This document shows, in pieces, positions 8,905-39,883 of a DNA stretch of 64,000 bases. The first letter of the stretch is position 1, and every line of letters starts with the position of its first letter. Both the position numbers and the translations under genes were made by a program. Below the pieces are notes generated by a model. It was not told the origin of the DNA. It worked only from the letters and a program-made list of their open reading frames with translations, and searched no databases. This DNA is from Candidatus Eiseniibacteriota bacterium (lineage in GTDB: Bacteria > Eisenbacteria > RBG-16-71-46): the NCBI GenBank assembly GCA_963717505.1, contig OY970342.1, positions 2,784,001 to 2,848,000 of the forward strand, read 5' to 3'.

Positions 8905-8958
8905 GGGTCTCCAGTCGGGTATCCGAGGGTTCGGGGGACCCGAACGGTCTGAGGTGGG

Positions 8959-8985
8959 TTTTCGGCTGGACCCGGGGAAACCTGA
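8959..8985 (-). promoter_or_regulatory. Putative sigma28 (FliA/WhiG)-like promoter for the membrane HD-GYP gene
   Basis: Minus strand reads TCAGGTTT-N11-GCCGAAAA; the sigma28 consensus is TAAAGTTT-N11-GCCGATAA. Confidence 0.55.
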
Positions 8986-9018
8986 GCGAGAATTCCGGCC
9001 CCAACCTGCGGACGGTCC

Positions 9019-9047
9019 TAAAGCTGGGCAGCCCCAGGTGCCGAATA
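9019..9047 (+). promoter_or_regulatory. Putative sigma28-like promoter for the GAF-HD-GYP gene
   Basis: TAAAG-N16-GCCGAATA, ending 7 nt before the GTG start at 9055. Confidence 0.5.
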
Positions 9048-9054
9048 TACCGGG

Positions 9055-10323
9055 GTGGAATTCCTCATTCGCCCATTCCGAAGAGACGCCGATCGTCCGA
9101 TCCTGGTCGACGACACCGGCGGCGAGCCGACGGTGGTTGCGTCCCGCCCGCTGGCCGAAGTGCGTGGCGCCCAGGAAGAGATCGTCCGTTCCGACGCCAA
9201 ACTGGCCGAGCTGATCCTGAATCTGGTCCACGAGACCGCGCGCGCCAGCAGCGACGAGTCGCAGCTCATGGCGGTGATCGCCGAGTTCGCGTTCCGGGCG
9301 TTCCCGGGCGCCACCCACCACGTGCTCGCGGTCAAGGACGCGAACGAACCCGGCGGCTTCCGCACGCTGATCGCCCGCTCGCGGAGCGGCGACGAGCCCG
9401 ACGTGACACTGAGCCGCACCATCGTCTCGCGGGTCATCAGCGAGGGTTTGGCGGTGCTGGTCACCCACACTGAACAGGACATGGCCAAGGTCCACAGCAT
9501 TGCACTCTCGGGGCTGCAGACCGCGATCTGTGCACCCCTGACCCAGGGCGAGACCGCGTTCGGCATCGTCCAGCTCGACATTCGCAATCCCGGCAAGGGC
9601 GTGTTCACCAGCCGCGACGTCGACCTCTTGTCGGTGTTCGCCAGTCAGGTCAGCCTCGCGCTCGACCACCTGCACCTGTTCCAGCAGCAGCGCCGAGCCC
9701 TGCAGTCGACGATCAATGCCCTGGTTCACTCGCTGACCCTCAAGGATCCCGAGACCGCGCATCACTCGGAACGGGTCCAGGCCGTGGCGCTCGAGATCGG
9801 ACGCGAGATGGGTTTGTCGGGCCGCGAGCTCGAGATCATCGGGGTCGCCGCGATCCTCCACGACCTGGGCAAACAGGGCGTGCGCGATGACGTCTTGTTC
9901 AAGCCCGACCGGCTGACCGAGGGCGAGCGGGAAGAGATGGCGCACCACGCGGCCTACACCCAGACCATCCTCGACAAGATCGAGTACCCGGAGCAGCTCC
10001 GGGAGGTCCCCAAGATCGCTGCCTACCACCACGAGAAGATGGACGGCAGCGGGCCATTCGGCATTCCCGGTCCCGAGATCCCGCGCGCCTCGCGCATCAT
10101 CTCGGTTGCCGACGTGTTCGATGCGCTCATGTCGCCGCGCTCGTACAAGGATCCAATGTCGGTCGACCAGGTGGTAGGGATCCTCGAGAAGGGCAAGGGC
10201 GTCGACTGGGATCCGCAAGTGGTCAGCGCTCTGCGGCAGATCATCCCGGATCTCGAAGCATCGCTCTACGCTGCGTCGGCGTCCGCCGCCGAGGCCAGCG
10301 AGCCGCTCGACGAAGCGGCCTGA
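9055..10323 (+). CDS. GAF + HD-GYP domain protein
   Basis: GAF region (LSRTIVSRV...AICAPL...GIVQLD...FTSRDVDLL); HHSERV, LHDLGK, HHEKMDGSGP and VADVFDAL motifs. Confidence 0.9.
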   Translation: MEFLIRPFRRDADRPILVDDTGGEPTVVASRPLAEVRGAQEEIVRSDAKLAELILNLVHETARASSDESQLMAVIAEFAFRAFPGATHHVLAVKDANEPGGFRTLIARSRSGDEPDVTLSRTIVSRVISEGLAVLVTHTEQDMAKVHSIALSGLQTAICAPLTQGETAFGIVQLDIRNPGKGVFTSRDVDLLSVFASQVSLALDHLHLFQQQRRALQSTINALVHSLTLKDPETAHHSERVQAVALEIGREMGLSGRELEIIGVAAILHDLGKQGVRDDVLFKPDRLTEGEREEMAHHAAYTQTILDKIEYPEQLREVPKIAAYHHEKMDGSGPFGIPGPEIPRASRIISVADVFDALMSPRSYKDPMSVDQVVGILEKGKGVDWDPQVVSALRQIIPDLEASLYAASASAAEASEPLDEAA

Positions 10324-10400
10324 CGCTCGTCGCACCCGCAGAACCCCCGCATTCTCGCCCGCATCCCGCCAACGAATCGACTTTGCCTGGCCGCCCCCGA

Positions 10401-11471
10401 TCAGGCGGCGAAGTCCTGGGGCAGATACTTCTCGAAGGCGATGCGGTCGATGGCGTGCTCGTAGGCTTCCTCGCCGCTGATCGTTTCCTTCTTGACCATT
10501 TCGCCGAGCACGGAGTCGAGCGCCTGCATGCCGATCCGGCCGCCGGCCTGGATCGCGTTGGTCAGCTTGTGGCTGTTGCCGCTGCGGATCATCGAGGACA
10601 CCGCGTGGGTGGTGACCATGACCTCGGCGGCGACCACCCGACCCGAGCCGTCGGAGCGCCGCACCAGCTGCTGTGAGACCACCAGCCGCAAGCTGTCGGC
10701 GAGCATGGCGCGGATTTGGTCCTGGCGCCGAGGCGGGAAGACGTTGACGATCCGGTCGATCGAGCGCACGGCGCCGTTGGTGTGCAGCGTGCCGAACACC
10801 TGAATGCCGGTCTCGGCGGCGGTCAGCGCCAGGCTGATGGTCTCCAGGTCGCGCATTTCGCCGAGCAGGATGACGTCCGGATCCTCGCGCACGGCGCTGC
10901 GCAGCGCCTCGGAGAAGCTGGGCACGTGGGCGCCGACCTCGCGCTGGGTGAACAGGCACTTCTTGACCTGGTGGACGAACTCGATCGGGTCTTCGATCGT
11001 GATGATGTGTCCGTGGCGCATGCCGTTGATGTAGTCGAGCATGCTGGCCAGCGTCGTCGACTTGCCCGATCCGGTCGGACCGGTGACCAGAGTCAGCCCC
11101 TTCGGCACCTCGATGATGTTCTTGACCACCGTCGGAATGCCGATCGCGTCGATGTTCGGGATGTCGGTCGGGATCACGCGAAAAGCGGCGGCGAGGCCGG
11201 ACGAATGGCGGTAGACGTTGACCCGGAATCGCCCGAGCGACTCCGAGGAGTAGGCGAGATCGACCGCGTACTGGCTGGCCAGGGTCTCTTTGTGCTCGCG
11301 ACTCAAGATTTCGACCAGTAGGTCTTCGACGTCGGTGGTCGACAGGTCGCGGAACCGAACCGGGGCCAGATTGCCGTTGACCCGGATGCGCGGCACCTGC
11401 CCCGAGACCAGATGCAGGTCGGATCCGCCCTGCTTTACCACCAGCTCGAGGAACGTGTCGATGCGTTTCAT
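10401..11471 (-). CDS. pilT: PilT/PilU-family type IV pilus retraction ATPase
   Basis: GSDLHL, Walker A GPTGSGKST, TIEDPIE, REDPDVILLGEMRD and GTLHT motifs; start MKRIDTFL. Confidence 0.92.
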   Translation of the reverse strand: MKRIDTFLELVVKQGGSDLHLVSGQVPRIRVNGNLAPVRFRDLSTTDVEDLLVEILSREHKETLASQYAVDLAYSSESLGRFRVNVYRHSSGLAAAFRVIPTDIPNIDAIGIPTVVKNIIEVPKGLTLVTGPTGSGKSTTLASMLDYINGMRHGHIITIEDPIEFVHQVKKCLFTQREVGAHVPSFSEALRSAVREDPDVILLGEMRDLETISLALTAAETGIQVFGTLHTNGAVRSIDRIVNVFPPRRQDQIRAMLADSLRLVVSQQLVRRSDGSGRVVAAEVMVTTHAVSSMIRSGNSHKLTNAIQAGGRIGMQALDSVLGEMVKKETISGEEAYEHAIDRIAFEKYLPQDFAA

Positions 11472-11473
11472 GG

Positions 11474-12592
11474 CTACGCCGCCCGTCCTTCGGCGTCGCC
11501 GCTCGGGGCGCCGGCCATCAGGTTCAACAGCTCGGGACGGGTCACGAACGGCGCGAAGCCGAATTTGTCGGTGGCCTTGAGGAATGCCTCGTCCGGGTCG
11601 ATGTCGCCGGCGCGCACCATGGCGAGCAGCGACTGGTCCATCAGCTGCATGCCCATGCGGCGACCGGTGATGATGGCCCCCGGGATCTGGAACGTCTTGC
11701 CTTCGCGGATCAACTGGGCGACCGCCAGGGTGACCACGAGGATCTCGGCGGCCGCTCGGCGTCCGCGCCCGTCGGCGACGCGGACCAGCTCCTGGCTGAT
11801 CACGCACTTGAGGTTGTCCGCCAGCGAGTGACGCACCTGCGCCTGGGCGTCGACCGGCAGGGCGTCGACCATGCGATCGATGGTCGCGGCCGCACCTCGG
11901 GTGTGCAGCGTGCCGAACACCAAGTGGCCGGTTTCGGCGGCCTCGAGCGCCAGCGCGATGGTTTCCGAATCGCGCAGCTCACCGACCAGGATCACGTCCG
12001 GATCCTCACGTAGCGCCGAACGCAGGCCGTCTTTGAACGAGAGGACGTGGGTGCCGACCTCGCGCTGGACGACCAGTGACTTGGCGCTCTCGTACTGGAA
12101 CTCGATCGGCTCCTCGAGCGTGAGCACCATGAGATCCTGCGTCTGGTTGATCTCGTTGATCATGGCCGCGAGCGTCGTGGACTTGCCGGTGCCCGTCGCT
12201 CCGGTGACCAGGACCAGGCCCGAACTGAAGCTGGTGAATCGCGAGAGAATGTTCGGCATCCCGAGGTCGGCCAGCCGCGGCACCGCGCTCGGGACGACGC
12301 GGCAGGAGATGCCGATGCCGCGCAGATGTCGGCAGACGTTGATCCGGAATCGCCCGACCGCTTCCGCGGCGTACGACAGGTCGACGCTGCCGCGCTCGTG
12401 GAACACGCTGCGCTGCGATTCGCTCAGGATCTCGTCGATGATGCCTTCGGCCTCTTCCTGGGTCAGCGAGCGGTACTTGATCGGGACCAGCTGGCCGTCG
12501 AGGCGCACCAGCGGCGGTTGGCCGACGCTGAAGTGGATGTCGGAGCCGCCCTGCTCCCGGCCGATCTGCAGGAACGCATCGATGCGCGGCAT
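11474..12592 (-). CDS. pilT: PilT/PilU-family type IV pilus retraction ATPase (second paralog)
   Basis: GSDIH, GATGTGKST, TLEEPIE, REDPDVILVGELRD, GTLHT and AQLIREGK motifs. Confidence 0.92.
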   Translation of the reverse strand: MPRIDAFLQIGREQGGSDIHFSVGQPPLVRLDGQLVPIKYRSLTQEEAEGIIDEILSESQRSVFHERGSVDLSYAAEAVGRFRINVCRHLRGIGISCRVVPSAVPRLADLGMPNILSRFTSFSSGLVLVTGATGTGKSTTLAAMINEINQTQDLMVLTLEEPIEFQYESAKSLVVQREVGTHVLSFKDGLRSALREDPDVILVGELRDSETIALALEAAETGHLVFGTLHTRGAAATIDRMVDALPVDAQAQVRHSLADNLKCVISQELVRVADGRGRRAAAEILVVTLAVAQLIREGKTFQIPGAIITGRRMGMQLMDQSLLAMVRAGDIDPDEAFLKATDKFGFAPFVTRPELLNLMAGAPSGDAEGRAA

Positions 12593-12609
12593 GGCTTCCT
12601 AGGGCGCGG

Positions 12610-14979
12610 TCAGGCCGCGGCCCGCAACATCCCGAGCAAGTCCAGGGCGGACGCGGGCCGGTCCTTGGGGTCTTTTGCGATCGCGCGCATGACGAAGCGC
12701 TCCACGTGTTCGGGAACGTCCGGAACCAGCTCGCGCAGCGGCGTCACCTGGCCTTCGACGTGGCGGAAGAGCACGTTCACCGCGTTCTCTCCGTAGAACG
12801 CCTGCCTTCCGGAGAGCATCTCGTAGAGCACGACGCCAAACGAGTAGATGTCGGCGCGGCCATCGATGTCGGCGCCGGTGATCTGCTCGGGGGAGATGTA
12901 TTCCGGCGTGCCGACCAGGATGCCGCTCTTGGTCAGTCGTGATCCGGCGCCGGTGCCGGCGGAGGCAAGGCCGAAGTCGACGATCTTGGTCTGGTCGTCC
13001 TTGCCGATCAGGATGTTCGCCGGCTTGATGTCGCGATGGATGACCGAGACTTCGTGGGCCGCGGCCAGCCCTTCACACACCTGACAGGCGATCTTGAGCG
13101 TGCGGTCGACGGGGAGCGTGCCTTGGAGCTTGAGCAGCCGACCGAGATCCTGCGACTCGAAGTACTCCATCGAAATCGCGTGCTGGCCGCCGAGATCGAC
13201 CAGGTCGTAGATGCGGATCACGTTCGGATGGCTGATGCGCCGCGTGTACTTGAGCTCCTGAACGAAGCGCCGAATCATGCTCTCGTCGAGCGCCAGGTGC
13301 GGGCTCAGGACCTTGAGCACCAGTTCCTCGCGCACGATGACGTCCTCGACCAGGTAGACGGTGCCGAAGCCGCCGCCACCGATCTTGCGCACGACTCGGT
13401 AGCGATCGAGCAGCCGAACGCCGGGCGGCAGGTTCTGGTAGTCGCGGACAGGGGCGCTCGGGATCGGGGAAGCGGATGGCACCGGGGACGCGCTCCGGTC
13501 CTGAGGCGTCGGCGAGGGACGACCCTCGATGTCGGAGCGGCCCGGGTCCTGGTCGGGATCGGAGCGGCGCTTGCGCACCTCGAGCGGGCGCAGGCCGTCG
13601 CGGTCGCGCGCGGCCCCGGTGGCGTCGAGCGCCTCCTGGACCAGCCGGCGCTCCATCTCGGGCATCTCGACCTTGGCCAGCGCGGTGAGCGCATGGATCG
13701 CCTCGCGTCGGACCTCGGCGCTCTCGGATTGGGTCATGCGATAGACCGGGTCGACCGCGCGCGGATCGCCGAGTGCCCCCAGTGCGCGCAGGCACAGGGG
13801 AATCGCCCGGGTCTCGCGTTCCATGAGCCGCATGATCGGGACGACCGCGCGCTCGTCGCCGGTTTTCGCCAGGGCATCGATGGCGCGCTCGTGCACCCAC
13901 CAGTCCTGGTCGTCGAGCGCCTTGATCAGAGGTTCGACGGCGCGTTCATCGGGAACCGTGTTGAGAATCTCGACCGCGTAGCGGCGGATGTACTCGTCCT
14001 TGTCGTCGAGCAGCGAAATGACCGCGTCGACGACGCGATCCCCGCCCAGTGAGCCGAGCGCATCGGCGGCGCGTACGCGCACCCACCAGTCGGCGTCGCG
14101 TAGGGCCGACACCAGGTCCTTGATGGCGTCGACCGTGACCACCTGATTGAGCACCTCGACCGCCCCGCGGCGCGCCTGCTCCGATTCGTCCTTGAGGACC
14201 TCGACCAGGTGCGGCACGGCGGAAACGTCGCCGATCGCGATCAGGGCGTCGATCGCCGCCGTGTGGATCTTGATGTCCGGATCGCGCAGGTTCTGGCACA
14301 GGCCGGGGATCGCGGCCACGGCCTTGAGTCGCCCCAGGCACTGCACCGCCTCGAGGCGCACGCCGCGATTCTCGTCCTTGAGCAGGCGAATGACCGTCTC
14401 GATTCCCGCTTCGCTCGGGAAGCGCGCCAGGAGTTTGGCCATGTTCAGGCGCAGCCACCACTCGGCGTGGACCGCGAGACGGATCGCTTCGGCGGCGATG
14501 CTGCTGTCCGCGTGCTTCTCGAGAATGCGGAAGATGACGCCGCGGGCGTCCTTGCTCAGGTCCGGCAGCAGGCTGATCAGCATCCGCGGCTGAATGCCCT
14601 TCATCTGCGCCGAGAGGATGGCCTCCAACCGCGCCTTGGAGACCCGCGAGTCGGTGAACAGCTCGAGCAGGCGCGTCGGGTCGTAGTTCTGGGAGCGAGA
14701 CAGGGCCGTGCTGACGCCGTCGACGGTCTGGGGATCGGTCGAGGTCAGGGCATCGAAGAAGATCGGGAGCGTCTCGTTGTTGACCAGGCGCTCGAGGACC
14801 TCGAGTGCGGCGTCACGGGCTTCCGCCGAATGGAGCGAATCGAGGACCGAGCGGATCGAGGCGGGGCCGAGCGAGACCAGCTGATCCTTGACGTCGCCAA
14901 GCCGGCCGTCCGGTCCGGCCGTGGCCGAACCGAGCTGCTTCGCGATATGACCCGCCTGGATCTTTTTGAACAGGCGCAT
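12610..14979 (-). CDS. HEAT-repeat (PBS lyase-like) + Hanks-type Ser/Thr protein kinase, cytoplasmic
   Basis: Repeats such as LRDADWWVRVRAADALG; kinase motifs IGGGGFGTVY, HRDIKPAN, DFGLA and GTPEYISPEQ; no TM segment evident. Confidence 0.92.
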   Translation of the reverse strand: MRLFKKIQAGHIAKQLGSATAGPDGRLGDVKDQLVSLGPASIRSVLDSLHSAEARDAALEVLERLVNNETLPIFFDALTSTDPQTVDGVSTALSRSQNYDPTRLLELFTDSRVSKARLEAILSAQMKGIQPRMLISLLPDLSKDARGVIFRILEKHADSSIAAEAIRLAVHAEWWLRLNMAKLLARFPSEAGIETVIRLLKDENRGVRLEAVQCLGRLKAVAAIPGLCQNLRDPDIKIHTAAIDALIAIGDVSAVPHLVEVLKDESEQARRGAVEVLNQVVTVDAIKDLVSALRDADWWVRVRAADALGSLGGDRVVDAVISLLDDKDEYIRRYAVEILNTVPDERAVEPLIKALDDQDWWVHERAIDALAKTGDERAVVPIMRLMERETRAIPLCLRALGALGDPRAVDPVYRMTQSESAEVRREAIHALTALAKVEMPEMERRLVQEALDATGAARDRDGLRPLEVRKRRSDPDQDPGRSDIEGRPSPTPQDRSASPVPSASPIPSAPVRDYQNLPPGVRLLDRYRVVRKIGGGGFGTVYLVEDVIVREELVLKVLSPHLALDESMIRRFVQELKYTRRISHPNVIRIYDLVDLGGQHAISMEYFESQDLGRLLKLQGTLPVDRTLKIACQVCEGLAAAHEVSVIHRDIKPANILIGKDDQTKIVDFGLASAGTGAGSRLTKSGILVGTPEYISPEQITGADIDGRADIYSFGVVLYEMLSGRQAFYGENAVNVLFRHVEGQVTPLRELVPDVPEHVERFVMRAIAKDPKDRPASALDLLGMLRAAA

Positions 14980-15014
14980 TCACGCTCCATCGGCCCGGCT
15001 GCCGAGGCCCGAAC

Positions 15015-15596
15015 CTATCGGATGATGAACCAGGCCGCCGCCGCGCCCACCGACGTCGCGACGATCAGCGCGATGCCGATGGCGATCAGCGTCGCGGCTC
15101 GAGACCAGCGTTTCTCCGGGGTCATGGGCGCCCGGCCGCGGGAGGCAGGGTCGGGTCCTGTCGGGGCCACGATGTCCTGCTCGCGCGAGATGTTCATCAG
15201 GTGATTGATCTCGGCGGTCGACAGCATCATCGTCGGCTGAGCGGCGTCGCCAGCGGGCGCTGCCGCCGGTTCCGTGGTCGCGCGACGATCGCGCTCCAGG
15301 CTGATCCACAACGAGAACTTGCCGAGGCGGATCACGTCGTTGTTGTACAAGTAGGCCGTCTTGATCCGCTCCTCGTTCAGGAACGTGCCGTTCGCGCTGT
15401 TGAGGTCGCGTACTGTGTAGTGCCCTTTGGGCGTTCGCTCGAACTGCAGATGAATGCGCGAGATGCTGGAGTTGTCCAGCACGATGTCGCACTCATCGCT
15501 GCGCCCGCAGGTGATGACCGGTTTGTCGAACGTGTAGCTCTTGAGGGGACGCCCCTTGAGCGACAGCCGGATGCGAAGGACATTGTCCTCAGCCAT
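15015..15596 (-). CDS. FHA domain protein with C-terminal transmembrane anchor
   Basis: CGRSDECDIVLDNSSISRIH and DLNSANGTFLN FHA motifs; hydrophobic C-terminus; GGAG upstream of ATG 15596. Confidence 0.88.
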   Translation of the reverse strand: MAEDNVLRIRLSLKGRPLKSYTFDKPVITCGRSDECDIVLDNSSISRIHLQFERTPKGHYTVRDLNSANGTFLNEERIKTAYLYNNDVIRLGKFSLWISLERDRRATTEPAAAPAGDAAQPTMMLSTAEINHLMNISREQDIVAPTGPDPASRGRAPMTPEKRWSRAATLIAIGIALIVATSVGAAAAWFIIR

Positions 15597-15691
15597 TCGA
15601 TCAGCTCCATTGCAGATTGCCCGGGGGAGCCCATTTGGCCCCAACCGGCCGGTTTCACGCGGCGCACGTGCGTGATTTGCCGGCACTTCCC

Positions 15692-15720: not shown

Positions 15721-15738
15721 GGGCAAAAAGGGGCAGGA

Positions 15739-16530
15739 CTAGGCCCCGAGGCGGTCCCGGAGCTCCCGTGCCCGGGTCCGGCTGACCGGAACCTCGGTTC
15801 GGGCGGAATCGCGCAGCTGGAGCCGGTAGGTGCCGGCAAATGCGGGCCGCAGGGCGGCTGCCCAGTCCAGGTTGACGATTGCCGAGCGATGGACCCGGGC
15901 GAAGCGGGCGGGATCGAGCCGCCGCTCGAGCTGATCGAGCGTGAAGTTGACGTAGTGCCGGTCGCGCTCGGTGGCGACGAACACGAGTTTGTCGTCGGCG
16001 CCAAACCACAGCACTTCCTCGGCCCTGAGGATGACCTGCCGGGCGCCGACCCGAACAGTGAATCGTTCGAGCCAGGGCGCTGACGCGCGCCCGGCGTCGA
16101 GGCCGGTCAGAAGTTCGGTCAATCGCCGCGACAGATCCTCGGGATGCTCGAGTTCCCGGCGCGCCCGCGCCAGGGCCTCGGCGAGCCGCTCGGCGCGAAA
16201 CGGCTTGAGCAGGTAGTCGACCGCGTTCTCCTCGAACGCGCGCACCGCGTAGTGGTCGAAGGCGGTCACGAACACCACCGCCGGGCGTGGGTCGAGCGAG
16301 GCGAGCAGCTGGAAGCCATCCTCTTCGGGCATCTGGATGTCGAGCAGCACGACGTCCGGGTGAAGCTCGGCGATCCGGCGGCGCGCCTCGGCCGCGGACC
16401 CCGCCTCGCCGACCAGGGTGACGCCGGGAAGCTCGCCCAGGATGCGGCGGGCGCGCGCTCGCGCCAGCGGCTCGTCGTCGACCACCAGAACGCGTAAGGC
16501 CCGATCGGAGCCCACCGGCGGGGGAATCAT
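15739..16530 (-). CDS. LytTR-family response regulator
   Basis: VLVVDDEPLAR, LLDIQMP and DYLLKP receiver motifs; LytTR motif FARVHRSAIVN...VPVSR. Confidence 0.95.
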   Translation of the reverse strand: MIPPPVGSDRALRVLVVDDEPLARARARRILGELPGVTLVGEAGSAAEARRRIAELHPDVVLLDIQMPEEDGFQLLASLDPRPAVVFVTAFDHYAVRAFEENAVDYLLKPFRAERLAEALARARRELEHPEDLSRRLTELLTGLDAGRASAPWLERFTVRVGARQVILRAEEVLWFGADDKLVFVATERDRHYVNFTLDQLERRLDPARFARVHRSAIVNLDWAAALRPAFAGTYRLQLRDSARTEVPVSRTRARELRDRLGA

Positions 16531-16541
16531 GGCCTAGGCGT

Positions 16542-18746
16542 TTACCACGTCAGCGCGAAACCCGCCACGACCATCCGGCGACTGAAGTACGACAGCATCT
16601 CGTGACGTTCGGTGTAGTCCTCGTTGTACGTGTATTCCAGGATGTTCGGAGTATCCAGAACGTTCATCGCCTCAAGGTAGAGGACGCTCAGGCCACTCTC
16701 GGGTAGCCCAAGGCCGGCGGGCATGGTGAACAGCCGGGTGAGCCGGACGTCCAGTCGATGGTACTGGGGCATCTCCGCCGAGTACTCCGGTCCCTCGATC
16801 GGGCGCCACAGATCACGGCTCGGGTCGTACGTGGCGCCGACCACCGGCGTGTAGGGACGACCGGTGGTGAAGCCGAACCGACCGCCCATCTGCCAGAAGC
16901 CCGGAAGCTGGACCGATGCGACCAGGGTCAGCGAGTGGCGCACGCCGTAGGGCGAAGGAACTTCGGTGGTGACGTCGCCTTCGAGGCGGCGGCTGTCGAG
17001 ATAGCCGTACGAAATCCATCCGGTGTAGGGGCCGGACCGGGTGCGCGCGAACAGATCGACGCCGTTGGCTTCGCCATGGCCCTCGTTGGCGTAGTAAGTC
17101 TCGGCCGATTGAGTGACCAGATCGTCGTAGCGCTTGCGATAGAACTCGATCCGCACGTTCGACTCCTCGGCCAGCCACTCGTAGCCGGCAATCACATGGT
17201 CGGCGGCGAGGGGTCCCAGGGTGGGATTGCCGTAGACCGGATCGAGGTATTCGGGGCTCGCCAGCTGATGATAGCGGCCCGCCGCGACGCGCACGGTCTG
17301 GCGGTCGGAGATGCGCCAGGCGAGTGCCGCGCGCGGATCGATCGTCCAGGTGTCCACGAGCGAGGCGCGATCGGCGCGCACGCCGAGCGTCGCGTACACC
17401 GGGCCCCACAGGCGGATCTTGTCTTCGATGTAGCCGCCGGGCATCGACTGACGCGGCCGTGTGTCGTGATAGCGCACCGGTGCGCCCGGCTGGAGGTCGG
17501 TGCTGTCGGCCGGGTAGACGCCGACCAGGTCGTCGGCGCGCCGCGCGAAACGGAAGCCGGTCGACAGCTCGTGCTGCGGCGAGGCAGCCCACACCGCGTC
17601 GAGCTGCGCCTGGATTCGCTTTTCTCGCTCGGTCGCCGCCATCGGGCCGAACGTCCAATCCGACAGGTACTGCTGATATCCGACGTGTCCGCGCAGGGCG
17701 ATGCTGCGGCCGATGCCTTCCTGCCACTGCACCGCGGCGATTTGATTGCGCGACTCACCAGTGTAGACACCCGAGAAGTTGAGATAGTCGGAGCTGACGC
17801 TGGCCCTGTCGCCCGATCCCAGATAGAGGAACGACAATCGGCCGGTGGGCGAGTAGCGGTACAGCAATCGTCCGGCAGCGTCGGCCGAGCGCGGCGCCGA
17901 TACGTAGTCGCGCGAAGCACCGTAGAGCTGCTCGAGCAGCTGCACGTTGCTGGCGCGCACCGAGCCGACCAGCGAGACCTTGTCTGGCACCAGCGCCCAG
18001 CTGGTCGACACGCCGCCGCCCACCAGATTCGCGCCGACCGTGACCGTGCGCAGGTTCATCGGGTCCTGGGTCTCGATGTCCATCACTCCGGAAAGGGCCC
18101 CGCCGTAGCGGGCCGAGAACCCGCCGCTCGAGAAGAAGGCACTCTTGAGCATGTAGGCGTCGAGGGTCGAGAACAGCCCGCCCGAAGCGCCTTCATAGTG
18201 GTAGGGGTGGCCGATCTCGCCACCGTCGAGCCGGACCACGGTCTCCGAGGGATCGCCGCCGCGGACGAACAGCGCAGCGCCCTCGTTGGGTGCGTTGATG
18301 CCCGGCATCGCGCGCAGCGATTGAAACACGTCGGCGGCTCCGCCCGGCGTGGTGAATACATCGATCCGGCGCAAGGTCGCACCCTCGCTCTTGCCGGACT
18401 TGCCGAACGACGAGGCGGCGACCACGACTTCACTGACCGGCACCGGGGCTTCGCGCAACACGATCCGGAGCGGTGCGATGCCGGCCGCAATCACCAGATC
18501 GAGTCGCACCGGCTGGTAGCCGATCTGGGTCGCTTCGAGCACCACCGGCCCCTCGGGCAGTTCCAGCGCGAAAGCGCCCTGAGCGTTGGTCACCGCACCG
18601 GCGCGGAGCGCAGACACCCGCACGTTGGCCAGCTCGACGGGACGCCCGGCCGGGTCGACCACGATTCCGGTGACGCGCGCCGCCCACGCCGGGGCAGCGC
18701 ACAGCGCCACCAGGACGACCGCGAGTACGGCGCGCGCCGGGATCAT
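16542..18746 (-). CDS. TonB-dependent receptor with N-terminal carboxypeptidase-regulatory-like domain
   Basis: Signal peptide MIPARAVL...AWA; plug motifs LRAMPGI, LFVRGG and GGFSARYGGALSGV; barrel ending in aromatic W; ATGA overlap with the upstream TPR gene. Confidence 0.9.
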   Translation of the reverse strand: MIPARAVLAVVLVALCAAPAWAARVTGIVVDPAGRPVELANVRVSALRAGAVTNAQGAFALELPEGPVVLEATQIGYQPVRLDLVIAAGIAPLRIVLREAPVPVSEVVVAASSFGKSGKSEGATLRRIDVFTTPGGAADVFQSLRAMPGINAPNEGAALFVRGGDPSETVVRLDGGEIGHPYHYEGASGGLFSTLDAYMLKSAFFSSGGFSARYGGALSGVMDIETQDPMNLRTVTVGANLVGGGVSTSWALVPDKVSLVGSVRASNVQLLEQLYGASRDYVSAPRSADAAGRLLYRYSPTGRLSFLYLGSGDRASVSSDYLNFSGVYTGESRNQIAAVQWQEGIGRSIALRGHVGYQQYLSDWTFGPMAATEREKRIQAQLDAVWAASPQHELSTGFRFARRADDLVGVYPADSTDLQPGAPVRYHDTRPRQSMPGGYIEDKIRLWGPVYATLGVRADRASLVDTWTIDPRAALAWRISDRQTVRVAAGRYHQLASPEYLDPVYGNPTLGPLAADHVIAGYEWLAEESNVRIEFYRKRYDDLVTQSAETYYANEGHGEANGVDLFARTRSGPYTGWISYGYLDSRRLEGDVTTEVPSPYGVRHSLTLVASVQLPGFWQMGGRFGFTTGRPYTPVVGATYDPSRDLWRPIEGPEYSAEMPQYHRLDVRLTRLFTMPAGLGLPESGLSVLYLEAMNVLDTPNILEYTYNEDYTERHEMLSYFSRRMVVAGFALTW

Positions 18747-19528
18747 GACTCGGTTCCTCCTCCCGCCAGCTTGTCCAGCTCGGGCAGCAGGCTGTAGCGC
18801 ACCCAGTTGTTCCTCGGATTGATCTCGAGGGCCTTCTCGTAGTGCGCGCGCGCTGCGTTCCAATCCTTGAGCTTGGCCGCCGAGCGGCCGGCCCAGACGT
18901 GGGCGTCGTCGTAGCCCCAGTCGATCGAGGTGCTGTCGCCGGGTGCCGCCGCCGCGAACAACGTGATCGCGCGTTCGAGTTGAGGCAGTGCCTTCTTGGC
19001 GCCGCCGCCCACGAAACCCGGTTTGTTGTAGGTGCCGATGCCCTCCAGCAGTGCCACCCGCGGATTCTCGGGGGCGATACCCTTGGCCTGGCCCTCGATG
19101 CCCGAGATCTCGCCACCCAGCGACATCGCCTTCATCGGCGACATCGAAATCGAAAGTCCGAGCAGGCCCGCCTTGAGCGACATGCACTCGGCGGACTGTG
19201 GCGAGGCCGCCAGCGCCTGATCGAGATGCGCGACCGCGTCGTCGCAATAGCGCTGCGCCTGTTTCTTGTCCTTCGTCATGACGCGCGGCACCAGCCGGTA
19301 GGAGGCGAGTGCCACCCAGTAGTGCAGCTCGACCGACTTGGGATCGGCCGCCGACATGCTCGCCAGCTGTTCGCGCACGGCCACCAGCTTGTGGACCGAG
19401 TCGAAGGCCGCGGCGTAGGTCAGCGTGCGCGCCGTGGCCAGCTCAGCCGGGTCGGTGGCGCTGGCCGGTTGCGCCGTAGCGATCAGCGCCAGGGTTGCGA
19501 GAACGAGGATGCTGCGTTCGGGTTTCAT
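18743..19528 (-). CDS. Secreted tetratricopeptide-repeat protein
   Basis: Signal peptide; helical repeats (PENPRVALLEG, ARAHYEKALEINPRN); PGFVGGG motif; translationally coupled on both sides. Confidence 0.8.
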   Translation of the reverse strand: MKPERSILVLATLALIATAQPASATDPAELATARTLTYAAAFDSVHKLVAVREQLASMSAADPKSVELHYWVALASYRLVPRVMTKDKKQAQRYCDDAVAHLDQALAASPQSAECMSLKAGLLGLSISMSPMKAMSLGGEISGIEGQAKGIAPENPRVALLEGIGTYNKPGFVGGGAKKALPQLERAITLFAAAAPGDSTSIDWGYDDAHVWAGRSAAKLKDWNAARAHYEKALEINPRNNWVRYSLLPELDKLAGGGTES

Positions 19529-20643
19529 GACCGTTTCTCCTTTGGGAACTGCGGATCCGCGCCCGGCTCGTGCGAGCGGACGGGAAGCGTGATCCGGACG
19601 GTGGTTCCGCCGCCCGGTGTGGCCTCGATGACCAAATCGTGAGGAGGACCTGCGCCGCGCAGGCGCTCGCGCACCGAGTGCAGGCCAAAGCCATTGCCGC
19701 TTGGGGTGGCACCCGGGTCGAAGCCCGGTCCGTCATCGCGCACTTCGAGGATCAGCCGATCGCTGTCACGACGCGCGCTGATCGAGATCGTGCCGCCCTG
19801 GTTCTGCGCCGACACGCCGTGGCGCACCGCGTTCTCGACCACGGGTTGGAGCAACAGGCTCGGGACGTGAAGAGCCTCGAGCCCGGACTCGATCCGCTCC
19901 TGAACTTGGAGCCGAGCGCCGAACCGAACCCGCTCGATCTCGAGGTAGGAACGCAGGAACTCCAGCTCCTCGCCGAGTCGCGCGAACTCGCGGTCCGAAG
20001 CGCGCAGCGTGTAGCGGAACACTTCGGCCAGGCGGGTGATGGTGTCCTCGGCCGCCGCCGGCTGCTCACGGACCAGCGCCGCGATGGTGTTGAGCGCGTT
20101 GAACAGGAAGTGCGGATGGACTTGGGCGCGCAGTGCTCTCAGCTCGGCCTCGGCCAGCTCGGCGCGCAGTCGCTCGATGGCGCCGGCCCGATCGACCGCC
20201 TGCCGGTGATAGCTGATCGCCGAGATGATGCCGCCGATCAACCCGGTGAACAGGAGCGAAAACATGCCGACGATCACCATGCTGCGAGCACTGCCCATAA
20301 GGCCGGGCATGAGGGTGAAGTGGATGATGATGGCGGCGATGTACGAGCCAATCAGGGCCGCGACCGCGTAATAGATCGGGATTTGCCAACCGCGCCCGGT
20401 CTCCTCGCAGCGCTGGCGGGGCAGCACGAAGCTCTCGAGCGCCCATATGCACACATTGATGATGAAACCGAACACCATCGAGAGCTGGTAGGCGAACCAG
20501 TAGCTCGTCCAGCCGCGATCGCCGAACAGCGTCCCGAAGAACAGGGCGGTCGGAATCGACCACAGGGGCGTCCGCCACGCGATGGTCCCTAGCTGCTGGA
20601 GCGCGCTTCGCTTCGGGCGTGTCTTCAAATGCGGTCGTTCCAT
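19525..20643 (-). CDS. LytS/YehU-type membrane histidine kinase
   Basis: LRAQVHPHFLFNALNTI, LQPVVENAVRHG, DDGPG and GFGLHSVRERL motifs; about 4 N-terminal TM helices; GGAGGA RBS before ATG 20643. Confidence 0.93.
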   Translation of the reverse strand: MERPHLKTRPKRSALQQLGTIAWRTPLWSIPTALFFGTLFGDRGWTSYWFAYQLSMVFGFIINVCIWALESFVLPRQRCEETGRGWQIPIYYAVAALIGSYIAAIIIHFTLMPGLMGSARSMVIVGMFSLLFTGLIGGIISAISYHRQAVDRAGAIERLRAELAEAELRALRAQVHPHFLFNALNTIAALVREQPAAAEDTITRLAEVFRYTLRASDREFARLGEELEFLRSYLEIERVRFGARLQVQERIESGLEALHVPSLLLQPVVENAVRHGVSAQNQGGTISISARRDSDRLILEVRDDGPGFDPGATPSGNGFGLHSVRERLRGAGPPHDLVIEATPGGGTTVRITLPVRSHEPGADPQFPKEKRS

Positions 20644-20698
20644 GGCTTCCTCCTCGACGCAATCTACGGAGAAGTCCATGGGGCGGCGACGGTTCGCC

Positions 20699-20732
20699 GG
20701 ATGAACGGTCGGATCAGGGGGATGAACGGTCG
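20699..20732 (-). promoter_or_regulatory. Tandem LytTR-binding direct repeat upstream of the LytS operon
   Basis: GGATGAACGGTCG at 20699-20711 and 20720-20732 (21-bp period). The minus-strand core ACCGTTCATC resembles the AlgR box ACCGTTCGTC. A -10-like TAGATT lies at 20661-20666 (minus). Confidence 0.75.
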
Positions 20733-20806
20733 CGGGCGGGGGCGGACACCTCGGCTCCGCGGGGTCGTGGGCGTTGGGAGGCCCCCGGGCCTGGTCGCCC
20801 GAGGGG

Positions 20807-20834
20807 TGAAGTCCCAGGGCCGAGTCGCCGAAAA
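20807..20834 (+). promoter_or_regulatory. Possible sigma28-like promoter for the beta-barrel gene
   Basis: TGAAG-N15-GCCGAAAA. Confidence 0.4.
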
Positions 20835-20925
20835 CCTTCGATGCCCCCGAGGACGGGCGGCCGCACGCGTTCAGCGCTCGGTGCCGACCCCTCGGCCCAA
20901 TCCTGAATCCACCACGGAGGCAAAC

Positions 20926-21516
20926 ATGAAGCGCACCATTCTGCTGCTCACGCTTGCGTCGACCGTCGCGGCGGCTTCGTCCGCGATGGCGCAGGCCGAC
21001 CTCGGGCTCAAGAACGTCGGGGTCGCTCTCGGCTTCGTCAACGCCGAGGAGCTCGACGGCACGTTCAGCGTCGGCATCCTCGCGAACCACGGCACGATCG
21101 CTCCGAGGATCGGGCTCGAGTCGCACCTCGACTACTGGTCCAAGTCCGAAGACGACTTCGGCACCGAGGTCTCGGTCCGCGACATCACGATCGGCGTGCG
21201 CGCCAAGTATCTATTCGAAGTCGCGAACCCGCGGGTCCAGCCGTTCGCCGGCGTCGGCGTCGGGCTCCACTTCCTGGGCGCCGAAGTGACCACACCGCCG
21301 ATCGGCGGGTTCCCGGGCACGTCCTCAGACGACTCGGAGACCCGTCTCGGAATCGACCTGGGTGGCGGTCTGACCACCCCGATTGGCCCCAAGACCGACT
21401 TCCTGGCTGAGGCCTGGTACGGAATCGTCGAGGACGTGAATCAGTTCTCGCTGCGGGCCGGAATGGTCTGGAAGCTCGGTGGGCTGGCACCCGCCGCTCG
21501 CAAGGGAGGCAAGTAG
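20926..21516 (+). CDS. Small outer-membrane beta-barrel protein (OmpA-TM/OmpW-like)
   Basis: Signal peptide MKRTILL...AMA; alternating strands; QPFAGVGVGLH motif; GGAGG RBS. Confidence 0.82.
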   Translation: MKRTILLLTLASTVAAASSAMAQADLGLKNVGVALGFVNAEELDGTFSVGILANHGTIAPRIGLESHLDYWSKSEDDFGTEVSVRDITIGVRAKYLFEVANPRVQPFAGVGVGLHFLGAEVTTPPIGGFPGTSSDDSETRLGIDLGGGLTTPIGPKTDFLAEAWYGIVEDVNQFSLRAGMVWKLGGLAPAARKGGK

Positions 21517-21532
21517 GGTCGCAGCAGTTCGG

Positions 21533-22738
21533 CTACGGGGTTCGCGACAGGACGCGCAACACCATGACCGTCATGTCGTCGGCGGGCTCGACGCCGTCGA
21601 GGAAGTCGCGAACCCCGTGCAGGACCCGCTCGATTACCTCGCGCGCGGGCAGCTCGCGCGGCAGGGATTCGATCAGCGCGTAGAGGCGTTCTTCCCCGTA
21701 CATCTCCCCGGTGGTGTTCTCGGCCTCGCTGATTCCGTCGGTGTAGAACACCACGCGATCGCCGGGCACGAGCTGAATGACTTCCTCTTCATAGGCAACG
21801 CCCTCGAGGAAGCCGACCACCAGTCCACCTGCCTCGAGCTGCGTCCGGCGTCCATCCGAGTGGAATACCACCGGATAGTTGTGCCCGGCGTTGGTGTAGG
21901 TCATGCGCAACGTCGACTCCTCGACCCGCGCCAGGAAGCAAGTGGCGAACTGTCCCGTGCTCGAGCTGCGCTGGTGCACCAGGCCGTTCAGACTCCTGGC
22001 GACCCCGGCCACGGAAGGCGTCAGGTCGGCCTGGGTGCGCAGCGAGGCCTGAAGCATCGAGGTCAGCAGGGCCGCGGGTACCCCCTTGCCCGAGACGTCG
22101 GCGATCACCAGGTAGAACGCATCATCGCCGGCTGGGACCACGTCGTAGAAGTCGCCGCTGACTTGTTTCGACGAAACGTTGACCGCGTGGACCTCGAGCC
22201 GGGGCATCGCCGGAAACTGGGAGAGTAGGAACGAGCGCTGGATGCGACGAGCCAGATCCAGCTCCTGCTCGGAGAGAGCGCGCGCGACCGCCTCGCGGTA
22301 GAAGATCACGGCGTAGATGATTCCGCTGACCAGCACCACGAACAGCACCGAGAACATCGCGATGGTCAGCACCTGCCTCGGGCTGCCCATGAATCCCGGC
22401 AGGATCGTGAAGTGGATGAGCATGGCCGCGACGAACGAGGCGGCCAGGCTGACCCCGCCGAACAGGAGCCCGTGCTTGATGAATCCCACCGCCCCCGGGG
22501 TGTCCGATTCCGGGAGCAGCCGCGGGCGCACGAAGGACTCGGTGGCCCACACCGAGATCCCGATTACGTAAGCGAAGACCAGAGAGATCAGGTACGCGTC
22601 GAAGTAGCCCCTGAGTCCGGCCCCGAACAGCGTTCCGAAGAACAGGCCGAACGGGATCCCCCACAGCGCCTGCATCCAGAGCAGGTTGAGGAAACTGCGG
22701 AGCTTGGTTTCGGGTTTGGCGGGACGACGCGGGGGCAT
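21533..22738 (-). CDS. Membrane SpoIIE/PP2C phosphatase whose sensor domain is homologous to that of the neighbouring LytS kinase
   Basis: About 4 TM helices, then ELDLARRIQ, SGDFYD, ADVSGKG, NAGH, YTDGISEA and DDMT motifs. Confidence 0.92.
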   Translation of the reverse strand: MPPRRPAKPETKLRSFLNLLWMQALWGIPFGLFFGTLFGAGLRGYFDAYLISLVFAYVIGISVWATESFVRPRLLPESDTPGAVGFIKHGLLFGGVSLAASFVAAMLIHFTILPGFMGSPRQVLTIAMFSVLFVVLVSGIIYAVIFYREAVARALSEQELDLARRIQRSFLLSQFPAMPRLEVHAVNVSSKQVSGDFYDVVPAGDDAFYLVIADVSGKGVPAALLTSMLQASLRTQADLTPSVAGVARSLNGLVHQRSSSTGQFATCFLARVEESTLRMTYTNAGHNYPVVFHSDGRRTQLEAGGLVVGFLEGVAYEEEVIQLVPGDRVVFYTDGISEAENTTGEMYGEERLYALIESLPRELPAREVIERVLHGVRDFLDGVEPADDMTVMVLRVLSRTP

Positions 22739-22825: not shown

Positions 22826-22835
22826 GACGAACGGT
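22826..22835 (-). promoter_or_regulatory. Putative LytTR box upstream of the PP2C gene
   Basis: Minus strand ACCGTTCGTC (exact AlgR-type box); shares GAACGGTCGGA with the 20.7-kb repeat; only degenerate partners at +/-21 bp. Confidence 0.55.
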
Positions 22836-22840
22836 CGGAA

Positions 22841-23458
22841 CTAGGGGGCGAGCCGTTCGAGGATCCAGCCGGCGGTGTCGCGTCGATAGCGCAACCGGTC
22901 GTGGAGACGATGGCTGCCCGCCTGCCAGAACTCGATCATCTCGGGCGCCACGCGATAGCCGCCCCAATCCCGAGGCCGCGGGATGGAACCGTGCCTGTGC
23001 CTTTCGGCGGCGGCGCGCGCGCGGGCTTCGAGCCACTCGCGACTCTCGACCACCTGGCTCTGCGGCGAGACGCTGGCGCTCAAGCGGCTACCGACCGGCC
23101 GCGTGGCCCAGTAGGCGTCGGACTCGGCGTCGGTGATGCGTGCGATCGGGCCCTCGATGCGGACCTGCCGATCGAGCGTGCGCCAGTGAAAGCAGAGTGC
23201 AGCGCGTGGGTTCGCCGCCAGCTCACGGCCCTTGCGGCTGGTGAAGTGCGTGAAGAACACGAAGCCGCGCTCGTCGGCGCCGCGTAGCAACACCATGCGC
23301 ACCGAAGGCTGGCCGTCCGCGCCGCTGGTCGCGAGCGCCATGGCGTCGGCTTCTTCAGCCGCACCGCCGGCATCCGCGTACCAGGCGTGAAACAGCACGA
23401 GCGGATCGGCGGGGGCGTCGCGCTCGTCGAGCGGCGCTGGCCGAGGGGGACTGGTCAT
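22841..23458 (-). CDS. pdxH: Pyridoxamine 5'-phosphate oxidase
   Basis: PSVRMVLL, SRKGREL, RQVRIEG, WGGYRV, EFWQ, RLHDR and ERLAP motifs. Confidence 0.95.
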   Translation of the reverse strand: MTSPPRPAPLDERDAPADPLVLFHAWYADAGGAAEEADAMALATSGADGQPSVRMVLLRGADERGFVFFTHFTSRKGRELAANPRAALCFHWRTLDRQVRIEGPIARITDAESDAYWATRPVGSRLSASVSPQSQVVESREWLEARARAAAERHRHGSIPRPRDWGGYRVAPEMIEFWQAGSHRLHDRLRYRRDTAGWILERLAP

Positions 23459-23488
23459 CGCGCGTGCGGGCCGTCGGCGGCGCTTGGT

Positions 23489-24685
23489 TCAGCGATACGC
23501 CGGAATGCCGGTGACCGCCTCGCCCAGCACCAGCGTGTGGATGTTGTGCGTGCCCTCGTAGGTCTTGACCGACTCGAGGTTGCACATGTGCCGCATCACC
23601 GGGTACTCGGCGGTGATGCCGTTGGCGCCGAGGATGTCGCGCGCCTGGCGCGCGATGTCGAGCGCGATCTCGCAGTTGTTGCGCTTGGCGAGCGAGATCT
23701 GCTCGGGCTTGACCACGCCGCGTCTCCTTGAGCCGGCCGAGCTGGACGCACAGCAGCTGCGCCTTGGTGATCTCGGTCAGCATATCGGCCAGCTCGCTCC
23801 TGCACGAGCTGGAAGCCGCCGATCGGCCGGTCGAACTGTACGCGGCTCTTCGAGTACTCGGCCGCCGCAGTGGAAGCAGGCCATCGCGGCGCCGACCACG
23901 CCGAATGCGATGCCGAAGCGCGCCTGCGACAGGCAGCCGAGCGGGCCCTTCAAGCCACGCACGTTGGGCAGCAGATGCGCCTCGGGCACGAACACGTCCT
24001 GGAGGACCAGCTCGCTGGTGACCGAGGCGCGCAGCGAGTGCTTGCGCTTCTGCTCGGGTGCCGTAGAAGCCCTTGGTGCCCTTCTCGACCAGGAAGCCGC
24101 GGATCTCGTCCTTGCCGGTGGTCTCGTCCTTCAGCCTGGCCCAGACCACGGCGACGTGTGCGACGGTGCCGTTGGTGATCCACATCTTGGCGCCGTTGAG
24201 GACAAAGCCGCCGTCCTTCTTCACGGCGCGCGTGAGCATGCCGCCCGGGTTCGAGCCGAAGTCGGGCTCGGTCAGGCCGAAGCAGCCGATCACTTCGCCC
24301 TTCGCCATGCTGCGGCAGCCACTGTCTGCCTCTGCTCCTCGCTGCCGTAGGCGAAGATCGGGTACATGACGAGCGAGCCCTGCACCGAGGCGAACGAGCG
24401 CAGCCCGGAGTCGCCGCGCTCGAGCTCCTGCATGGCGAGCCCGTAGGCGGTGGGCGACGACGCCGGCGCAGCCGTACTCTCTCCGGCAGCGACGCCCCGA
24501 GCAGGCCCATCTCGGCGACCTCGGGAATCAGGTCCATCGGGAAGGTCGCCTCCTCGTAGGCGTCTTCGACGCAGCGACAGGAAGCGGTCCTCGACCCAGT
24601 CGCGGACGTGGTCGCGGATCTGGCGCTCGTCCTCGGTCAGGAGCGAGTCGATGTCGTAGAAATCCACGCCGGTGAAGCGGGGCAT
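23489..24685 (-). CDS. gcdH: Acyl-CoA dehydrogenase, glutaryl-CoA dehydrogenase-like; several frameshifts
   Basis: Fragments: [70 protein letters not shown]. Confidence 0.8.
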
Positions 24686-24908
24686 GCGGGCCTCCAGGCT
24701 GCCGCGCGCACGGCGCGGGGACATTCGATGGGTGTGCGGGCCGGGCAGTATAGGAGGTTTGCACAGCGTGCGCACGAGGGCCGCCGGTCTTGTCGGGGCA
24801 ACTCCGCGGTGGCAACCTGATCGCCGATCAGGAACCGGTTGAGGCCGTTGATCAGCGGCGGCCGCAGGTGAGCCGCAATAGAGGGCTCGATACGATAGGA
24901 GCGCAACG

Positions 24909-25313
24909 ATGGCGAAGATTACCGGAGTCGGCGGCGTCTTCTTCAAGAGCAATGGCGACAACGCCGCGCTGGCAGCGTGGTATCGGAAGCACTTGGGCAT
25001 GCAATTGGAGGACTTTGGCGGCGCGATCCTCAGATGGCCGGACGACAAGGCCGAGGATCGAGGCCTTACCGTGTGGCATGTCGCGGAAAAAGACAGCCAG
25101 TGGTTCAGCCCCAGCAACTCCTTGTTCATGATCAACTACCGGGTCGACAACCTCGGCGAGATGCTGGAGCAACTGCGTGCGGGGGGTGTGGAAATCACCC
25201 AAGGCCCCGAATCGCACGAGAACGGCAAGTTCGCGTGGATCATGGACCCCGACGGTAACAAGGTCGAACTCTGGGAACCGAAGGTCTGGAACGACAAGAA
25301 CAAAGGTGCCTGA
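24909..25313 (+). CDS. VOC/glyoxalase family protein
   Basis: [10 protein letters not shown]...WY; MINYRVD; [17 protein letters not shown]. Confidence 0.9.
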
Positions 25314-39861: not shown

Positions 39862-39883
39862 GGTCCGGGCCGCTCGGCCGCCC

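Follow-up and report, generated by a model that had tools for sequence, protein, structure and literature searches.

A 64 000-nucleotide stretch of Candidatus Eiseniibacteriota DNA (contig OY970342.1, positions 2,784,001 to 2,848,000; referred to below as the window, whose numbering is used throughout) encodes, on the reverse strand, a 372-residue membrane histidine kinase (19525–20643) and a 401-residue membrane PP2C phosphatase (21533–22738) whose N-terminal modules are, as judged by sequence, homologous. In the kinase, the four-helix module (20173–20643, −; four segments within residues 1–155) is fused directly to a LytS-type DHp and ATPase domain, and in the phosphatase the module (22274–22738, −; residues 1–155, four membrane helices) is fused directly to a SpoIIE-family catalytic domain. 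We propose, with moderate confidence, that the module is the only input part of an AlgZ/FimS-like LytS-family kinase and of a SpoIIE/RsbU-type PP2C phosphatase, with one signal serving two outputs. The reuse of an input module on different outputs is known; what is new here is an uncurated and apparently phylum-restricted module, a conserved two-output arrangement and a recognisable regulator site.

The shared module and its two outputs

The resemblance between the two N-termini, which the original prediction had drawn by eye, is borne out by alignment. BLASTP matches the full-length proteins with 120 bits (E = 5e-35, 78 of 218 positions identical), and the N-terminal 155 residues are 42% identical. 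The Smith–Waterman score of the module pair is 302, compared with a mean of 32.6 and a maximum of 61 for full shuffles (n = 1000) and a mean of 39.0 and a maximum of 79 for shuffles confined to blocks of 20 residues (n = 1000), which preserve the membrane-segment and hydrophobic pattern. Because the score far exceeds both sets, the likeness reflects true homology rather than membrane composition. The genes lie about 0.9 kb apart on the same strand (20643 to 21533, both −), as had been noted, and the kinase start, an ATG at 20643, is the same in the public gene call (P0136).

The outputs named in the original prediction, a LytS-family kinase beside a REC and LytTR regulator and a SpoIIE/RsbU-type PP2C phosphatase, were recovered by Pfam. 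In the kinase, His_kinase (PF06580) matches at 19909–20148 with 95.2 bits (cut-off 25.2) and HATPase_c at 19576–19854 with 54.1 bits, and the H-box, read from the sequence, lies about 30 residues after the last membrane segment. In the phosphatase, SpoIIE (PF07228) matches residues 205–396 with 172 bits, and Asp196, Asp214, Asp334, Asp387 and Asp388, the metal-binding residues of this family, are invariant in 28 full-length relatives. The catalytic parts of both enzymes thus look intact, with H-box and ATPase domain present in the one and the Asp residues in the other. Pfam identified no PAS, GAF, HAMP or other input domain in either protein; each consists of the module and a catalytic part and nothing else. 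The module itself (residues 1–155) gave no Pfam-A match at E ≤ 0.01, nothing relevant in NCBIfam at E ≤ 0.1 and no match to profiles of curated membrane input domains (such as 7TMR-DISM, 5TMR-LYT, MASE and MHYT), in keeping with the earlier statement that the sensor belongs to no recognised family.

Hydropathy predicts four membrane segments in the module. An AlphaFold2 model of the phosphatase module, built on an alignment of 148 natural sequences (predicted local distance difference test score, pLDDT, 88.0; predicted template modelling score 0.79), places helices at residues 12–38, 42–74, 83–111 and 120–154, and in a model of the full-length phosphatase (pLDDT 90.1) helix 4 runs unbroken over residues 120–170 into the catalytic domain. 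Arg and Lys are abundant at the module N-terminus and in the loop between helices 2 and 3, so that the positive-inside rule predicts a cytoplasmic location for this loop and for the two ends of the module. Only two loops face outwards and both are very short, with a few residues each. Among 150 copies of the module, 15 positions are at least 80% conserved in both the kinase and the phosphatase forms: Pro29, Phe30, Ala31, Phe33, Phe34, Gly39, Phe55, Ala105, Gly115, Arg121, Phe133, Leu136, Gly139, Ala143 and Arg153. Three motifs stand out as conserved: helix 1 carries PFAxFF, the outward-facing loop that joins helices 3 and 4 carries PGFLGSxR, and FYRxAxxRA follows helix 4. Glu67, Ser68 and His109 are common to the pair in this window without being conserved across the family.

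A search of the PDB with the module model using Foldseek gave a best E value of 0.77, and a comparison with 48,161 chains using VIA-align gave a best Z score of 7.6 (TIM22 and complex I subunits), which is at chance level for helical bundles. No solved structural relative was found with either program, a result that does not imply a new fold. In the ESM Atlas, the nearest clusters are unlabelled hypothetical proteins of 143–160 residues (score 0.94) from Bacteroidota or Pseudomonadota and the nearest named cluster carries PF06580 in 40% of its members (score 0.82); both serve as leads only.

The 4.16 Mb single-contig genome (estimated completeness 86.7%) contains exactly two copies of the module, those of the kinase and the phosphatase, as found in a single-sequence search repeated with a 148-row profile at E ≤ 1. 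An exhaustive search of 1.84 billion proteins with a two-row profile returned 119 representative proteins at E ≤ 0.001, 74 of them at E ≤ 1e-10. SpoIIE is present in 26 of these and His_kinase in eight, while the remaining 85, mostly short fragments, carry no domain; no third signalling output and no Pfam match on the module was found among the 119. A profile search aimed at longer proteins, limited by candidate crowding, gave 14 matches (13 SpoIIE and one kinase), again with no third output. Every relative with a name belongs to Candidatus Eisenbacteria, the others being metagenome proteins without one, and the labels given at source are unspecific (‘serine phosphatase RsbU’, ‘signal transduction histidine kinase’, ‘hypothetical protein’). 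Within the phylum the module occurs in 109 of 206 genomes, distributed over families f1 (66/88), f2 (9/10), f3 (2/3), f11 (3/3) and f18 (28/41), with none in 13 other families. The module therefore appears to be confined to Candidatus Eisenbacteria, where it is still recognisable at 30–45% identity across the whole class. In a tree of the module, the output label requires 9–14 changes and well supported branches force at least three for the kinase form; because the tree is weak at depth, no direction of origin (which architecture came first) is drawn from it.

Two unusual copies were seen among the relatives. Genome G121 has a third copy of the module (L101:5802-6698, −), immediately downstream of the phosphatase form, in an open reading frame (ORF) of 298 residues, the remaining ~150 residues of which have no Pfam match; this may be a decayed duplicate or a third output. 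In a 624-residue metagenome protein (P0074), pyridoxamine-phosphate oxidase (pdxH) reads through into the module and a SpoIIE domain, most likely a gene-call run-on that reflects the adjacency of pdxH and the phosphatase gene in most f1 loci.

Gene order and a repeat box upstream of both genes

The surroundings of the module were compared across 150 module matches listed in 99 genomes, for which 111 regions were fetched and the proteins of the window mapped onto them by tblastn. The conserved order is PP2C phosphatase, kinase, TPR protein, TonB-receptor-like protein and LytTR regulator. Of 38 pairs on the same contig, 35 have module starts 1162–1423 nucleotides (nt) apart on one strand, and in all 36 pair loci fetched (34 genomes) the module–phosphatase gene is followed by the module–kinase gene on one strand. 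The five-gene array is complete in 31 of these 36 loci, and the other five end at contig edges. By genome, the two forms are adjacent in this order in 37 of the 47 genomes that have both; the full tally of the 99 genomes is 37 adjacent, 10 with both forms apart, 19 with the kinase only, 30 with the phosphatase only and three unresolved, where ‘only’ denotes the only form seen, as most of the genomes are incomplete metagenome genomes. The tally includes two corrections made by hand, for G131 (a phosphatase fragment at a contig edge beside the kinase) and G074 (a phosphatase copy on another contig, below the script threshold). Genome G073, flagged as unpublished, is counted once among the 36 pair loci and once among the adjacent-pair genomes, and it also enters the tree (two rows) and the f2 box counts given below. 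The pdxH gene lies just upstream of the cassette in most f1 loci and after the regulator in four f2 genomes.

In the window, the kinase gene is followed on the same strand by the genes for a 261-residue TPR protein (18743–19528; TPR_11 and TPR_2), a TonB-dependent-receptor-like outer-membrane protein (16542–18746; CarboxypepD_reg, Plug and barrel) and a response regulator with REC and LytTR domains (15739–16530; Response_reg 83.9 bits, LytTR 77.3 bits). The TPR protein has an N-terminal hydrophobic leader without Cys, which we read by eye as a secretion signal. The best NCBIfam match of the regulator is BtsR with 165 bits, under the cut-off of 246 bits for that family. The kinase stop codon overlaps the TPR start as ATGA, as does the TPR stop codon the receptor start, and 11 nt separate the receptor stop from the regulator start. 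The end of the regulator gene coincides with a terminator-like hairpin (15730–15747, −) that has a T-run; such sites are no more numerous in the region than expected by chance, and the hairpin is suggestive by its position alone.

Two exact copies of the box GACCGTTCATC, 21 nt from start to start (20721–20731 and 20700–20710, −), precede the kinase gene, the proximal copy ending 57 nt before its start. A single exact box, GACCGTTCGTC (22826–22836, −), is found 88 nt before the phosphatase start in the spacer between pdxH and the phosphatase gene. All three boxes are on the gene strand. The pattern GACCGTTCRTC occurs at 10 sites in the genome, compared with one for the reversed control, and three of the 10 are those upstream of the kinase and the phosphatase. 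Paired sites number only three in the genome and the kinase promoter has the sole perfect pair.

Among relatives, ACCGTTYRT was sought within 200 nt upstream (background 13 matches in 1.33 Mb on both strands). It is present before 51 of 61 kinase genes in families f1, f3 and f11. In f2, where the phosphatase gene leads the operon, it precedes five of seven phosphatase genes and none of the six kinase genes that directly follow them, and in f18, which has no kinase form, it precedes none of 22 phosphatase genes. The resulting box consensus, CGACCGTTC(A/G)TC, starts 52–131 nt (median 79) before the inferred start codon, and 46 of the 49 f1 kinase promoters with a box have a second half-site at a distance of 20–22 nt. 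The usual spacer of paired LytTR repeats is 12–13 bp. LytTR regulators such as AgrA are described as binding paired direct repeats upstream of promoters (PMC4227749), and the core of the box equals the site consensus given for AlgR, CCGTTCGTC (PMC4064291). By analogy, we infer that the LytTR regulator of the cassette binds the repeats. Within a limited literature search, the box is the first regulatory motif found for Candidatus Eisenbacteria.

A regulon prediction based on the box was dropped, given only the three paired sites in the genome and the unreliability of a crude assignment of ORFs downstream of the other single sites, the genome being GC-rich. Outside the window (G000:C1:2732589-2732815, −), two more exact GACCGTTCATC sites occur 216 nt apart in frame with a long ORF; they perhaps represent a repeated coding segment rather than a regulator site.

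Known systems and possible modes of action

Among known systems, AlgZ/FimS–AlgR of Pseudomonas aeruginosa, compared here by its published description, comes closest in architecture and box. AlgZ is described as a kinase of about 360 residues in which four predicted membrane helices, within the first 150 residues, lead straight into a LytS-family kinase core, with an unknown signal and a LytTR regulator as its partner (PMC4064291). The present kinase resembles it in length (372 residues), in having four helices within residues 1–155, in its LytTR regulator and in the box CGACCGTTC(A/G)TC. In the portion of the AlgZ account used here (PMC4064291), the protein lacks motifs normally needed for ATP-driven autophosphorylation and no paralogous PP2C partner appears, whereas the kinase in the window has a full HATPase_c domain and such a partner; moreover, all matches with a known domain among the 119 proteins from the module search have one of the two architectures described here. 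No protein named AlgZ occurs among the best 120 full-length kinase matches listed.

The kinase shares with LytS, BtsS and YehU the PF06580 core and a LytTR-type regulator, but it has four helices where those kinases have five to seven, lacks a GAF domain and shows no conserved Arg, Cys or Ser cluster inside the helices. An account of these kinases, cited in part, calls the 5TMR-LYT input domain characteristic of all LytS-type kinases and documents intramembrane sensing in BtsS, which binds pyruvate within its membrane helices (PMC10653868). 5TM-5TMR_LYT (PF07694) has no match at E ≤ 0.01 on the kinase or anywhere in the genome, at the completeness estimated above, and since it is without this domain the kinase is not a canonical member of the LytS/BtsS type.

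That one N-terminal module can be found on histidine kinases and PP2C phosphatases, with a helical linker, is a feature shared with the 7TMR-DISM, signalling-helix and ‘exchangeable toolkit’ cases. An older paper on multi-output membrane receptors reportedly covers 7TMR-DISM and 5TMR-LYT. The proposal that shared N-terminal modules drive kinases and PPM phosphatases through helical linkers is itself established (PMC1592074, PMC12143880, as far as the excerpts used here go). In contrast to the 7TMR-DISM type, the present module is much smaller, has two outputs as seen here, is phylum-restricted as far as the searches show and has its two architectures encoded next to each other, in a conserved pair that shares a regulator box. 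In a limited literature search confined to main texts, neither the module nor a conserved gene pair of kinase and PP2C phosphatase with the same module was found described. The phosphatase, in turn, is like RsbU, RsbP and SpoIIE in its PF07228 catalytic domain, its retained Asp residues and the long N-terminal helix leading into the domain, and unlike them in being membrane-embedded, in having no RsbT-binding, PAS or receiver input and in the absence of adjacent STAS or anti-sigma kinase genes.

In the reading that we favour, the module would be a dimeric transducer, either intramembrane or facing the envelope, and would relay one signal at the level of the membrane through helix 4 to either output. 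Once phosphorylated, the LytTR regulator would bind the repeats and autoregulate the cassette, and a boxed PP2C gene would place the phosphatase in the same regulon, driven by the same regulator. The outcome would be a two-branch response combining transcription through the LytTR regulator with Ser/Thr dephosphorylation. A parallel reading of one signal by both enzymes is plausible, we infer, and the putative functional link between them is strengthened by the gene order (37 of 47 genomes) and by the AlgR-like box upstream of both genes. The TPR protein and the receptor-like protein could either be regulated cargo or provide an accessory input. The original prediction had placed the enzymes in two pathways, and the first of these, a LytS kinase with its LytTR regulator, holds. 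The second, partner switching, does not emerge from the locus: the genome encodes 15 SpoIIE-type phosphatases, four of them in the window, and six STAS proteins, none of them in the window. The phosphatase substrate would most likely be a STAS-type partner-switching protein encoded elsewhere in the genome.

Several observations weigh against a common input. No conserved polar residue or pocket is found inside the membrane helices across the 150 copies, and the pattern of conserved residues is as compatible with a packing or transducing module as with a sensor; with its very short loops and with conserved residues that are Phe, Gly, Ala, Pro and two Arg, ‘sensor’ is an interpretive label for the module. 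Identity between copies is no higher within a genome (33.3%, n = 51) than between genomes (33.7%, n = 3757), the similarity rank of the partner at the same locus ranges from 6 to 56 of 56, and joint evolution is consequently not in evidence. As a pair, the genes are dispensable: the two forms are apart in 10 genomes, genus g15 retains pdxH, the kinase and the regulator without the TPR and receptor genes and has its phosphatase form elsewhere, and in family f18 the phosphatase form occurs alone in unrelated neighbourhoods (24 genomes examined). In the window itself, the kinase and phosphatase genes are not co-transcribed, since a gene on the opposite strand lies between them. The box precedes only 12 of 46 phosphatase genes in f1, f3 and f11, this one included (two of the 12, in G098 and G121, being unlinked from the kinase), and its pattern was derived from this window, so that its recurrence in relatives is the independent test. 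No STAS or anti-sigma gene was found in the scanned genes of the window, in the conserved cassette or in the one f18 neighbourhood examined, and for this reason the phosphatase substrate named above is a guess. On the same identity values, we reject the idea that the two copies evolve in concert or by gene conversion.

Some of these points would be expected if the module were a mere membrane anchor or dimerisation scaffold left by a tandem duplication, with no shared-input meaning and with signals arriving otherwise, through partner proteins (the TPR or outer-membrane protein) or cytoplasmic cues. The family-wide conserved residues, nearly all Phe, Gly, Ala and Pro, are typical of helix packing, the outward loops are a few residues long and same-genome copies show no joint evolution. 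However, neither protein has any other input domain, and a module that remains recognisable at 30–45% identity class-wide keeps both its PGFLGSxR loop and its juxtamembrane FYRxAxxRA motif in the two forms. The TPR and receptor proteins are also not obligatory for the kinase and regulator, as g15 has lost both genes and keeps the latter two. On balance, we regard a simple anchor as possible but doubtful.

A common signal could also be wired differently. The module may be a true sensor, of the membrane interior or the envelope, that is a distant relative of the membrane part of AlgZ/FimS (a system whose signal has gone unidentified for decades), and it may be placed within a feed-forward circuit, in which the same membrane signal would activate the kinase, the LytTR regulator would induce the cassette and the phosphatase gene, and the signal would also gate the newly made phosphatase, so that a sigma-factor partner switch would fire only under a sustained signal. 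We consider this elaboration unlikely. If it were true, the side-by-side pair would offer a direct experimental handle on how one module drives a kinase and a PPM phosphatase.

The original prediction had further suggested that the two proteins heterodimerise through the shared domain. A hetero-oligomeric complex of the two in the membrane, with one enzyme modulating its partner, would suit the homology of the modules, the adjacency of the genes in 37 of 47 genomes with both forms and the likelihood that two membrane proteins are made together. The DHp domains of kinases work as homodimers. RsbU-type phosphatases are likewise reported as homodimers (PMC12143880, in part). A one-to-one heterodimer would therefore break both outputs. 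Within-genome covariation is absent (33.3% against 33.7%), the two forms are apart in 10 genomes and the phosphatase occurs alone in f18, so the suggestion gained no support and we rate such a complex as distinctly improbable; a predicted heterodimer of the two modules scored 0.14 (mark 0.32), which weighs neither for nor against binding. Very improbable, finally, is that the phosphatase acts within the same pathway, for example on Ser/Thr phosphate carried by a cassette protein or by the kinase or regulator, and does not feed a sigma-factor partner switch: the lack of STAS and anti-sigma genes in the cassette, the ratio of 15 SpoIIE-type phosphatases to only six STAS proteins in the genome and an FHA protein and Ser/Thr kinase encoded just downstream would fit, but the last two lack conservation as neighbours (tblastn gave no match in 111 loci), the nearest solved relatives are Rv1364c, RssB and SiaA, which belong to partner-switching-type systems, and the phosphatase form is also found in f18 genomes without the kinase cassette.

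The mechanism by which one module can drive a PPM phosphatase as well as a histidine kinase is described as an open question (PMC12143880, in part). The cassette provides a minimal natural test case, in which two proteins encoded side by side consist of the same small module and a catalytic part only, with more than 100 natural variants of the module at hand for comparison and a recognisable regulator site. It also adds an uncurated domain family for Candidatus Eisenbacteria. This phylum is known from metagenomes only; the organism, a bacterium of soil type, is uncultured, and this, together with the fact that the general principle is not new, limits the reach of the finding.

Neighbouring genes and minor observations

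The gene on the opposite strand between the phosphatase and kinase genes encodes an outer-membrane β-barrel (20926–21516, +; OMP_b-brl, PF13505, 52.5 bits). No relatives of it were found beside the module in the 111 fetched loci by tblastn, and it is an insertion particular to this genome. In another genome (G159, L069:8724-10505, −), an opposite-strand ORF of up to 593 residues with weak TPR/YfiO-like matches lies between the two genes, and the spacer carrying the kinase repeat box seems to tolerate insertions.

An acyl-CoA dehydrogenase-like gene (23355–25135, −) appears to be broken over at least three reading frames, with its N-terminal, middle and C-terminal pieces in different ORFs. Together with the completeness estimate of 86.7% for a closed 4.16 Mb contig, this suggests either assembly indel errors or a pseudogene.

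Downstream of the cassette (7606–15635, −) are genes for an FHA protein with a C-terminal membrane segment, a 789-residue HEAT-repeat Ser/Thr kinase, two PilT/PilB-like T2SSE ATPases and a 1117-residue HD_5 (HD-GYP-like) protein, none of which is conserved beside the cassette in relatives. The FHA protein, the HEAT-repeat kinase and the β-barrel gene were considered as parts of the system and rejected, as the tblastn comparison placed no relatives of them beside the module in the 111 loci.

The three further SpoIIE-type phosphatases in the window are encoded at 39794–42178 (+), 51678–54458 (+) and about 4173–4745 (+); their architectures comprise a GAF–SpoIIE protein, a PDZ–GAF–SpoIIE protein and one recognised by its SpoIIE part.

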